A stretch of DNA of 64,000 nucleotides, taken from positions 2,312-66,311 of the forward strand of contig PFBV01000002.1 of the NCBI GenBank assembly GCA_002778465.1, in the 5' to 3' direction. Origin of the DNA: Candidatus Magasanikbacteria bacterium CG10_big_fil_rev_8_21_14_0_10_36_32. GTDB taxonomy: Bacteria > Patescibacteriota > Patescibacteriia > Magasanikbacterales > GWA2-37-8. The translations under genes were made by a program, and so were the position numbers. The first letter of the stretch is position 1. The number at the start of each line of letters is the position of its first letter. The notes beneath the pieces were generated by a model. The model searched no databases. It was not told the origin of the DNA and worked only from the letters and a program-made list of their open reading frames with translations. Below, one piece after another: positions 47,181-47,624 of this stretch.

Positions 47181-47209
47181 TTGACTTTTCAATTTATTTT
47201 TGCTATTAT
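47181..47209 (+). promoter_or_regulatory. Sigma70-like promoter positioned as for a tRNA gene
   Basis: TTGACT, 17 nt spacer, TATTAT. The -10 ends 12 nt before the GGAGAGG of the tRNA 5' fragment. Confidence 0.5.
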
Positions 47210-47221
47210 TATCCGAGAATT

Positions 47222-47273
47222 GGAGAGGTGGCTTCTGAGCTCCTGCCTGCCGGTAGGCAGGGGTCGAAAGCGG
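47222..47273 (+). pseudogene. Duplicated 5' portion (nt 1-29) of tRNA-Ser(GCU), interrupted by 3-nt and 20-nt insertions
   Basis: GGAGAGGTGGCT|tct|GAGCT|CCTGCCTGCCGGTAGGCAGG|GGTCGAAAGCGG compared with the tRNA 5' end GGAGAGGTGGCTGAGCTGGTCGAAAGCGG at 47529-47557. All 29 shared nt are identical. Confidence 0.7.
47242..47261. repeat. 20-bp GC-rich palindrome CCTGCCTGCCGGtAGGCAGG (second copy at 53222-53241)
   Basis: One mismatch from a perfect palindrome. The perfect copy CCTGCCTGCCGGCAGGCAGG is at 53222-53241. GC content contrasts strongly with the background. Confidence 0.8.
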
Positions 47274-47528
47274 TAATAAAATTTATGTATTGCGTGTATT
47301 TTTTACAAAGTCTGAAAGATAAAGGTTTGTACATCGGAAAAACGAATAATATTAAACGTCGGTTATCTGAACACAACGCCGGTAAAGTTCAATCGACAAA
47401 AAGTAGAAAACCTTTTATTTTGTTGGGATTAGAAAAATACCAAACAGAAAAAGAATGTTTGGCGGCAGAATTAGAATGGAAAAAAGGATATAAACGCGAA
47501 CAATTAAAAGTTAGATATAGTCTATAAT
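47274..47528 (+). mobile_element. GIY-YIG cassette lying between the tRNA-Ser 5' duplicate and the intact tRNA-Ser
   Basis: The cassette is bounded by 29-nt direct repeats (the tRNA 5' part). It contains only the 80-aa GIY-YIG ORF, whose stop is 1 nt from tRNA position 1. Confidence 0.45.
47285..47527 (+). CDS. Small GIY-YIG nuclease-superfamily protein (paralog of 14865-15125)
   Basis: MYCVYFLQSLKDKGLYIGKTNNIKRRLSEHNAGKV...KPFILL. The start is taken at ATG 47285 because the longer track ORF (47165) reads through the tRNA fragment and the palindrome. Confidence 0.75.
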   Translation: MYCVYFLQSLKDKGLYIGKTNNIKRRLSEHNAGKVQSTKSRKPFILLGLEKYQTEKECLAAELEWKKGYKREQLKVRYSL

Positions 47529-47624
47529 GGAGAGGTGGCTGAGCTGGTCGAAAGCGGCACACTGCTAATGTGTTGTACGGCTCTCAAGGTCGTACCGAGG
47601 GTTCGAATCCCTCCCTCTCCGCCA
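47529..47624 (+). tRNA. tRNA-Ser (anticodon GCU), type II with long variable arm, CCA encoded
   Basis: Hand-folded cloverleaf. Acceptor GGAGAGG/CCTCTCC. D stem GCT/AGC with a GG loop. Anticodon stem GCACA/TGTGT with loop CTGCTAA. 8-bp variable arm GTACGGCT/GGTCGTAC. T arm GAGGG-TTCGAAT-CCCTC. Discriminator G followed by CCA. Confidence 0.9.

Follow-up and report, generated by a model that had tools for sequence, protein, structure and literature searches.

A GIY-YIG nuclease gene, a GC-rich palindrome and a duplicated tRNA-Ser 5' end: a candidate homing-like cassette in Patescibacteria

The gene for the transfer RNA (tRNA) tRNA-Ser(GCU) on contig PFBV01000002.1 of Candidatus Magasanikbacteria bacterium CG10_big_fil_rev_8_21_14_0_10_36_32 raises an unusual question: how does a GIY-YIG nuclease gene come to lie between a tRNA promoter and the tRNA, with a broken copy of the tRNA 5' part at the promoter, and does the GC-rich palindrome that breaks this copy belong to the arrangement? 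We analysed the locus within a stretch of 64,000 nucleotides (nt), referred to here as the window, in whose coordinates its positions are given; L-numbers (L001 and so on) denote compared loci on other contigs. The reading that we favour, with a probability of roughly 0.55, is that the region holds one copy of a homing-like cassette, selfish and exchanged horizontally, that resides inside Patescibacteria tRNA genes and regenerates the tRNA 5' end. The window locus is composed of the following features.

47104..47126, + strand: terminator-like hairpin, a stem of 10 base pairs (bp) followed by a T run, which closes the preceding transcription unit and forms the upstream limit of the tRNA/cassette unit
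47181..47209, + strand: sigma-70-type promoter TTGACT-N17-TATTAT (10/12 match, with TG preceding the -10 box), presumably the native promoter of the tRNA-Ser gene and now the one that drives fragment, open reading frame (ORF) and tRNA
47222..47241, + strand: displaced 5' tRNA fragment, part A, consisting of GGAGAGGTGGCT (47222-47233, tRNA nt 1-12), TCT, and GAGCT (47237-47241, nt 13-17)
47242..47261, + strand: the 20-nt GC-rich palindrome CCTGCCTGCCGGTAGGCAGG, called PAL below, in the D-loop of the fragment immediately 5' of G18G19
47262..47273, + strand: displaced 5' tRNA fragment, part B, GGTCGAAAGCGG, equal to tRNA nt 18-29
47285..47527, + strand: ORF of 80 amino acids (aa) for a minimal GIY-YIG protein of the Slx1/UPF0213 type (PF01541), with its stop codon TAA at 47525-47527
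47529..47624, + strand: intact tRNA-Ser(GCU) with encoded CCA (ARAGORN; Rfam tRNA, 60.2 bits), its 5' part being the regenerated copy

The initial annotation of this stretch had described the promoter, a fragment identical to the first 29 nt of a tRNA-Ser 307 nt downstream and broken by TCT and CCTGCCTGCCGGTAGGCAGG, and an 80-aa GIY-YIG ORF between the two copies with its stop codon 1 nt from the tRNA, and all of this proved exact. Once TCT and PAL are removed, the fragment equals nt 1-29 of the intact tRNA-Ser, and a single T separates the TAA from the tRNA start at 47529. The exact repeat measures 13 nt in part A (position -1 included, paired with 47528-47540) and 12 nt in part B (paired with 47546-47557), and the 29-mer has one match in the window where none is expected by chance. 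Both ARAGORN and Rfam leave the upstream fragment unscored as a tRNA; only 47529-47624 scores, as a complete gene, and Rfam detects at the window locus the tRNA alone, with no intron RNA or other known RNA family. No recombinase ORF is present inside or beside the 307-nt insert, and the repeat is at the 5' end, unlike in integrase-type tRNA islands. At tRNA position 12/13, the TCT of the window and an insert of 13 nt in L006 are flaws peculiar to their loci; in the relatives nt 1-16 are uninterrupted.

Is this arrangement peculiar to one genome? A protein search with the window ORF returned 39 homologues, and all contigs examined for them share one layout, in which a 5' piece of tRNA-Ser is followed by one to three tandem PALs, a few more tRNA bases, the ORF, and an abutting or overlapping intact tRNA-Ser. 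When one genome per species was scanned, 60 further loci were obtained, nearly all from Patescibacteria assemblies. For the close family we took a census of 44 distinct ORFs with an E value of 1e-30 or lower; 40 of them have PAL no more than 130 nt upstream and a tRNA-Ser that starts -36 to +97 nt from the stop codon (median +8), the anticodon being GCU in 24, GGA in 12, UGA in 3 and CGA in 1. The other four comprise one contig end, one locus whose PAL is split by a nested palindrome (L067) and two tRNA-Cys-linked ORFs without a canonical PAL. The ORFs of PAL-bearing loci are 55-71% identical to the window ORF; the position of the ORF is fixed upstream of tRNA-Ser, outside any intron or intein, and the fragment always starts at nt 1 directly behind the promoter. 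In place of the one-off integration that had been supposed, the window locus thus appears as one member of a widespread family confined to Patescibacteria. The ORF tree, which with 80 residues is weak evidence, is mostly sorted by tRNA type into a GCU clade and a GGA/UGA clade, and in the same tree some close ORF pairs are found on different isoacceptors (L002 with GCU and L058 with CGA; L076 with UGA and L069 with GGA).

The fragment follows the tRNA next to which it lies. Among 33 loci with a clean piece, the 16-nt piece agrees with the tRNA of its locus at an average of 15.8 of 16 positions, compared with 12.0 of 16 for tRNAs from other loci. PAL stands after nt 16 and before G18G19, with the exceptions of L066 (after nt 8) and L070 (after nt 9). 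Beyond PAL, an exact match to the local tRNA continues for 2-26 nt (median 10; 3 when compared with other loci) and then ends abruptly; the fragment reaches the anticodon loop in some loci (L079, L068), and the 3' strand of the D-stem is absent in L003, L058, L063 and L095. The initial annotation had placed the insertion at about position 29/30, but the end of the duplicated segment varies between loci while the position of PAL is nearly fixed, and 29/30 is therefore not a defined insertion point. Two simple accounts of the segment were rejected. A copy kept to the end of the hairpin-enclosing stem, as a structural RNA arm, is at odds with the spread of the post-PAL match and with the four loci that lack the D-stem 3' strand, and a target-site duplication by staggered cuts is at odds with a left end of the repeat that is anchored at nt 1 whether PAL follows nt 8, 9 or 16. 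An extension of the repeat 5' of nt 1 into the 3' end of the ORF had been suspected from L003, L006 and L007; in 37 PAL-type loci such runs are mostly 0-2 nt and the flank scores are not above those of shuffles, and the extension is real in L106 only (56 nt).

PAL itself shows a distinctive pattern of variation. In the predicted RNA, its hairpin lengthens the D-stem. The arms of the hairpin are invariant, without covariation, and variation is confined to the central 6 nt, the part that would form the loop whether the hairpin is RNA or DNA; asking whether the hairpin acts as RNA or as DNA from the asymmetry of G-T versus A-C changes was given up for want of informative variants. The L008 and L009 loci are 100% identical over 1.9 kilobases (kb) of flank, yet one carries three copies of PAL and the other two, with adjacent substitutions; the palindrome region is therefore unusually unstable. 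Two functions considered for PAL were rejected: a terminator, as no T-run follows it, and a hairpin that sequesters the ribosome-binding site, as the distance from AGGGG to the ATG ranges over 6-34 nt, although this second function is kept as a minor possibility.

More distant subfamilies of the ORF allowed the link between palindrome and nuclease to be examined further. Their cassettes are built on other tRNA genes and carry other hairpins, as listed here.

L103, tRNA-Tyr: nt 1-12 copied, double hairpin in the D-loop
L099 and L114, tRNA-Ser: 5' part copied, double hairpin in the D-loop
L097, L101, L104 and L108, tRNA-Ser: nt 1-35 copied, double hairpin of the type TCGCC-loop-GGCGA CCCGCC-loop-GGCGGG inside the anticodon at 35/36
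L106, tRNA-Leu(UAA): positions -20 to 36 copied (the 56-nt repeat, with one mismatch), two other hairpins
L091 (minus strand), tRNA-Cys: nt 1-16 copied, then on to the anticodon, PAL-like hairpin in the D-loop
L051, tRNA-Asn(GUU): 5' part copied, PAL, and a group I intron at 35/36

Over the 679 kb examined, the type of hairpin matches the ORF subfamily without exception. The double hairpin is confined to its own cassettes, and stem changes among its variants are compensatory (CGCC/GGCG to CTCC/GGAG). Solitary PALs with up to 3 mismatches number 13 in the PAL-type loci (484 kb) against none in the other GIY loci (195 kb), a split with a probability of about 0.012 under equal PAL density. Because PAL occupies the same spot in 40 of the 44 close homologues and other subfamilies possess hairpins of their own, we regard it as an integral cassette module, apparently tied to the nuclease subfamily; the suggestion that a palindrome had hit the displaced copy by accident did not survive this comparison. 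Within this set, L051 (454-1470; IMG/VR 3300035537_000177) is a case in which tRNA-Asn(GUU) has apparently been parasitised twice, by a PAL and GIY-YIG cassette with the 5' partial copy upstream and by the group I intron (1182-1416, Rfam 86 bits) at anticodon position 35/36 of the functional tRNA-Asn copy.

The protein encoded by the window ORF matches PF01541 over residues 1-71 with 65.8 bits (cut-off 22.6, E=4.4e-18), and the catalytic Tyr/Tyr/Arg/His/Glu set Y5, Y16, R26, H30 and E62 is invariant across 25 sequences. Its 80 aa hold the catalytic domain alone, with no auxiliary or DNA-binding domain, and its sole solved relatives are the UPF0213 proteins 1ywl (E=4e-7) and 1zg2, together with SLX1 (7cq2), a subunit of a structure-specific endonuclease. 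Its place is thus in the minimal stand-alone Slx1-like branch of Dunin-Horkawicz et al. (PMC1564403) and not in the I-TevI/Seg branch with its DNA-binding domains. A fusion to a TrmH-like methyltransferase that makes Gm18 at G18 of the tRNA D-loop has been reported from the same branch (PMC1564403), and this echo of the PAL position may, as a lead only, hint at a link with tRNA. Phage databases yielded weak relatives only, at about 35% identity (maximum 36%) and with no close phage kin, and a phage origin or kinship with SegB was rejected on the same grounds. The ORFs of the window and L001 differ by 3 non-synonymous and 6 synonymous changes, and synonymous changes form the majority of differences between close ORF pairs. 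The ORF is under purifying selection with its catalytic residues intact and is predicted to encode a functional enzyme. We know of no experimental evidence on the function of the stand-alone Slx1/UPF0213 GIY-YIG family, which is very large.

Does the cassette move between genomes? Between the window and L001, the stretch that begins at the -35 box and reaches into the tRNA is about 96% identical at the nt level, whereas the adjacent ComF-like protein is 76% identical and the upstream spacer is unalignable. For L091 and L092 the identity is 94.7% in the ORF and 78.5% in the upstream 2 kb; for L068 and L074 it is 86% in the ORF and 74% in the surroundings, and for L086 and L087 83.5% and 68%. 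A cassette more similar than its flanks in four genome pairs is a signature of horizontal exchange. In L091, both flanks of PAL match the tRNA of L092 and not that of L091 itself; therefore the fragment travels with the cassette. Native and replacement 5' copies are usually identical, and in L091 it is the promoter-side fragment that looks foreign.

An uninterrupted site in a relative with a similar neighbourhood, which the initial annotation had pointed to as a means of checking the insertion, was found in L117. Here a tRNA-Ser(GCU) with its own promoter stands before the orthologous membrane-protein gene, there is no ORF, PAL or duplication, and tRNA nt 1-52 equal those of the window tRNA except for 1 nt. 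The search for empty alleles, a single metagenome scan with the neighbouring 521-aa protein, gave only this one relative (47% identical), and the contigs found through an exact match to that protein, L118 and L119, stop within the tRNA T-arm. In L117 (1133-2911), the uninterrupted tRNA-Ser(GCU) is overlapped in its 3' part by the end of a 592-aa ORF that, judging by its N-terminal sequence, has the look of a large serine recombinase; here the tRNA gene is used in the classical manner of integrases. In a further relative, L120 (neighbour 52% identical), a 115-aa 23S_rRNA_IVP (four-helix-bundle) ORF lies between the promoter and the orthologous tRNA-Ser(GCU); this ORF (184-740, minus strand) is flanked by direct and inverted repeats of the AGTAATTTG... 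type, without tRNA duplication. In these genomes, small ORFs seem generally to use tRNA leaders as landing sites.

Turnover of the cassettes is seen in several forms. In L087, the ORF and the tRNA are separated by a second unit that has no ORF and consists of nt 1-16, PAL, nt 17-27 and a further 45 nt; the ORF is truncated in L072, L083, L115 and L116, and L114 carries a 3' remnant of a PAL-family ORF upstream of its double-hairpin cassette, a possible nested invasion. In L098 (5754-10399, Patescibacteria bacterium KatS3mg090), 13 identical tandem units of 357 bp, each with tRNA-Ser nt 1-35, double hairpin, spacer and GIY-YIG ORF, run up to the contig end; this array may reflect true amplification, a small circle or an error of assembly, and was taken as weak support only. 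The tRNA-Ser genes that bear cassettes diverge strongly between relatives (L068/L074/L075, L091/L092), to 74-89% identity. In these sets the identity is near or below that of the protein-coding flanks, with compensatory stem changes included, and the cassette may have driven such divergence, through chimerism or through faster tRNA evolution.

How would such a cassette live in its host gene? The only strong promoter of the window locus is the one upstream of the fragment, 12 nt 5' of fragment nt 1 and the best match within the 1.3 kb scanned. There is no terminator between the ORF and tRNA-Ser in the window, and the last codons of the ORF make a -10-like TATAAT that ends 1 nt before the tRNA. 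Across 36 loci, a promoter match of at least 9/12 occurs upstream of the fragment in 12, as against directly upstream of the tRNA in 4, which is moderate evidence. Since the fragment holds the place of the tRNA 5' end behind the promoter, no terminator separates ORF and tRNA, and the TATAAT lies too near the tRNA for a correct 5' end, the unit is probably one transcript. The whole unit would be transcribed from the tRNA promoter, ribonuclease P (RNase P) would free the tRNA, and the RNA upstream would serve as the nuclease mRNA; we consider such co-transcription with release by RNase P plausible. The proposal of the initial annotation that a nuclease cassette lies within the tRNA-Ser transcription unit, with the displaced 5' fragment at the native promoter and a replacement 5' part supplied, is retained in this form. 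As the cassette carries tRNA nt 1-16, the invaded gene stays functional, and entry into an essential single-copy tRNA gene would do no harm.

With respect to movement, the nuclease would act on structured DNA at or near its cognate palindrome or a tRNA-gene loop. We infer this from the lack of a DNA-binding domain, the invariant palindrome arms without covariation, the pairing of hairpins with ORF subfamilies and the hypervariability of the PAL region. The breaks and recombination promoted in this way would place a copy of the cassette in related cells whose allele of that tRNA gene is empty or older, so that spread would take place by homing or allelic replacement, probably after uptake of DNA; the identity profiles point to recombination with the homologous tRNA locus of related cells. 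In this reading the palindrome would be the site at which the nuclease acts in cis, for binding, cleavage or control of expression.

Several observations weigh against a homing-like cassette. Known site-specific homing endonucleases do not resemble an 80-aa protein devoid of a DNA-binding domain. The filled allele keeps the whole empty-site sequence in its intact tRNA, so that a purely sequence-specific enzyme would cut the allele of its own host and the usual homing immunity is lacking. The tRNA stretch after PAL, perfect up to a sharp and variable breakpoint, fits poorly with insertion at the palindrome and would call for gene conversion or a selective reason. The higher identity of cassette over flank could partly reflect constraint. 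In L117 the neighbouring gene is only 47% identical and the tRNA lies in the opposite orientation, and no filled and empty pair was found among close strains. Finally, the 47 viral-contig stretches with PAL are almost all without a family ORF in the stretch examined, and PAL may therefore have a life of its own.

Against this background we weighed several other explanations. Strict linkage of the ORF to a tRNA and a leader that matches the local tRNA are also what would be seen if the locus were a vertically inherited host operon, in which a domesticated nuclease, active for example in repair or RNA metabolism, is preceded by a tRNA-like hairpin leader as a regulatory or stabilising 5' untranslated region. 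The leader would have to resemble a tRNA, for example as a competitor for processing factors or as a brake on translation from the strong tRNA promoter; it is predicted to fold as an extended D-arm hairpin, its PAL/GG junction AGGGG resembles a ribosome-binding site and lies 6-13 nt from the ATG in several loci, and the fusion to a TrmH-like Gm18 methyltransferase in this GIY-YIG clade (PMC1564403) could be taken in the same sense. Vertical inheritance is, however, difficult to reconcile with cassettes far more similar than their flanks in four genome pairs, with an L091 leader that matches the tRNA of another genome, with relatives that have no cassette (L117, L120) and with tandem, ORF-less, truncated and possibly nested copies. 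Moreover, the D-stem 3' strand is lost in some loci (L003), so that the arm is not conserved as a structure, and the AGGGG-ATG spacing varies from 6 to 34 nt. A host operon is thus unlikely in our view. The window alone would fit another history, namely a single integration of the ORF with nt 1-29 at 29/30, after which an unrelated palindrome hit the dead fragment; PAL does occur on its own elsewhere, and its other places in the fragments of L066 and L070 indicate that more than one site is possible. However, PAL stands at the same position in nearly all 40 loci in spite of ORFs only 55-71% identical, the end of the duplicated segment is not fixed, other subfamilies carry hairpins of their own, and a fragment that matches its local tRNA at 15.8 of 16 positions is not decaying like dead DNA, which together make this history highly improbable. 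Even less credit can be given to the fragment being the remnant of a second tRNA-Ser gene, from a tandem pair with the ORF between, or part of a tRNA that is split or contains an intron. Tandem tRNA genes are frequent, and the fragment extends to the anticodon loop in L079 and L068; but no 3' half was found in any of about 45 loci. Only the downstream gene is scored by Rfam and ARAGORN and, being complete, it needs no splicing, and the fragment always begins with nt 1 behind the promoter.

Two further explanations give the palindromes a larger part. In one, they are autonomous short hairpin elements with a preference for the loops of structured-RNA genes, and the ORF with its tRNA duplication is a separate, merely tolerant partner. 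The exact PAL 20-mer was found in 47 IMG/VR stretches (L010-L056) of 33-70% G+C, mostly far from a tRNA or family ORF; this wide range of contexts, which includes the variable loop of a tRNA-Met (L040), would suit an autonomous element, as would the direct repeats of 7-14 nt of local sequence that flank about 10 of 53 distinct solitary PAL sites, the palindrome nested in the PAL centre of L067, the difference in PAL copy number between near-identical strains and the equally strict conservation across species of mitochondrial double-hairpin elements (PMC10085805). In Patescibacteria loci, by contrast, the hairpin type follows the ORF subfamily without exception, and PAL favours a single place in the fragment and is never present in the functional copy, so that full autonomy seems rather improbable. 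The other explanation is broader than the homing-like cassette: nuclease and cognate GC-rich palindromes could represent a new class of bacterial mobile element that enters hairpin loops of structured-RNA genes. Its targets would be tRNA D-loops, anticodon loops, the tips of rRNA helices and the loops of other palindromes, and the palindrome would be both recognition site and mobile end, analogous to REP/RAYT or the hairpin ends of IS200/IS605 and served by a GIY-YIG enzyme; forms resident in tRNA genes would survive through the captured 5' part of their target. It is tempting to speculate that chimerism and fast tRNA gene evolution in Patescibacteria would be a side effect of such an element, whose existence we put forward as a tentative possibility.

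The homing-like cassette has partial counterparts among known systems. In mitochondria, GIY-YIG and LAGLIDADG mobile ORFs (mORFs) occupy Allomyces atp6 and Glomus atp6, atp9, cox2 and nad3, each bringing a replacement gene end (PMC3630166). The likeness extends to an ORF in an essential gene, a substitute for the displaced end, the native end left as a fragment, expression of the hybrid gene from the host promoter and horizontal spread (PMC3630166). In contrast, mORFs restore the 3' (C-terminal) end of protein genes, of which restoration of a tRNA 5' end is the mirror image, and the cassette described here is bacterial, with a minimal 80-aa Slx1-type nuclease and a palindrome always in the displaced fragment. 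The phage T4 gene for SegB, a free-standing GIY-YIG protein in a tRNA gene cluster, favours inheritance of its tRNA region (PMC2330249). Cassette and SegB thus share a free-standing GIY-YIG gene among tRNA genes. SegB is a larger protein with a DNA-binding part, and its gene is located between genes; to our knowledge, it involves neither tRNA duplication nor a palindrome module.

Free-standing homing endonuclease genes in general share with the cassette a location outside introns and inteins and a similarity higher than that of the flanks. The cassette differs from them in lacking a DNA-binding domain for a long target, and where disruption of the site gives them immunity, the filled cassette allele keeps an undisrupted site. 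Integrase islands and prophages likewise keep their tRNA target functional with a duplicated segment, but they use a tyrosine or serine recombinase, the 3' end and kilobases of DNA, whereas the cassette has no recombinase, uses the 5' end and measures 307 nt. Closer to the present hosts, Tsurumaki et al. (PMC11270868) found GIY-YIG and 23S_rRNA_IVP ORFs in non-intron insertions of rRNA genes of the Candidate Phyla Radiation (CPR), mostly at the top or base of stem-loops; they doubted homing as the route by which GIY-YIG ORFs spread and did not mention tRNA genes. Host group, ORF families and structured-RNA gene targets are the same, but those insertions lie within rRNA helices, and a tRNA cannot tolerate such an insertion, from which the cassette rescues it by the 5' duplication. 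Short GC-rich palindromes in spacers and RNA genes of AT-rich mitochondrial genomes, the double-hairpin elements, are suspected to be mobile (PMC10085805). The cassettes differ in that each type of hairpin travels with one GIY-YIG subfamily. GC-rich PstI palindromes were reportedly seen flanking Neurospora mitochondrial tRNA genes by Yin, Heckman and RajBhandary in 1981, and we know of no dedicated enzyme for these or for the mitochondrial hairpin elements.

The initial annotation had been aware of no description of the arrangement for free-standing GIY-YIG genes, and our literature search agrees: it gave no description of the architecture, of the PAL sequence, of YhbQ with GIY-YIG or of GIY-YIG with tRNA in CPR, and a 2026 survey of Patescibacteria tRNA introns mentions neither GIY-YIG nor palindromes nor duplications (PMC13011429). 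The cassette is thus apparently an undescribed element of the homing-endonuclease type that regenerates a gene end. With the 5' end regenerated and the promoter borrowed, a selfish gene would be able to settle in an essential single-copy tRNA gene of a streamlined genome, a strategy that is apparently new. For the stand-alone Slx1/UPF0213 family, the locus offers a genomic context and candidate substrates, the palindrome or a tRNA-gene loop; it also suggests a link from tRNA cassettes to the unexplained non-intron insertions in CPR rRNA genes, and short GC-rich palindromes may turn out to have a dedicated enzyme, an old question for the mitochondrial hairpin elements. For genome annotation, pipelines need to treat as artefacts both the tRNA fragments and those ORF calls that continue across the palindrome ('...SCLPAGR...', P0016 being an example).

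Beyond the cassettes, PAL occurs as single copies. The window contains two copies in its 64 kb, and five lie within 12 kb of L071. The second copy in the window is the following.

53222..53241, no strand: solitary perfect PAL copy CCTGCCTGCCGGCAGGCAGG in an ORF-free spacer of about 675 nt, where shuffled sequences give an expectation of 0

An inverted-repeat pair, CCCCGTTAGAAAA (53098-53110) and TTTTCTAACGGGG (53200-53213), lies next to this solitary PAL, and further GC-rich palindromes (GTCGGGGTCCCGAC...) come after it; the interval 53094-53300 has no Rfam family match and may be a graveyard of ORF-less cassette remnants. In the viral contigs, the direct repeats at PAL are perfect in L019 (14 nt), L013 (12 nt), L046 (11 nt) and L039 (10 nt), and PAL stands in or beside the variable loop of tRNA-Met in L040 (in the loop) and L012. 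PALs near tRNA-like 3' ends in L060, L086 and L090 gave no Rfam family match.

The motif of the inverted-repeat pair beside the solitary PAL is the same as that around a second, different small GIY-YIG ORF in the window, at 14865-15125 on the + strand (87 codons; family hidden Markov model, E=6e-26). This ORF is bracketed by the 13-nt inverted repeat CCCCGTTAGAGAT (14849-14861) and ATCTCTAACGGGG (15112-15124), whose right arm codes for the last residues of the ORF and overlaps the initiation region of the next gene. GIY-YIG ORFs bracketed by inverted repeats also occur in L100, L102 and L082 (minus strand, about 7845), and the bracketed ORF looks like a separate type of cassette, similar to an intervening sequence. 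The motif AACGGGGTAAAT is found immediately 5' of at least two start codons of the window, those of the 521-aa gene and of the gene at 15129, with occurrences at window 47528 and 48390-48400 and at L118 390-400. GGGGT may serve as a ribosome-binding motif of this genome, and the PAL/G18G19 junction yields the similar AGGGGT.

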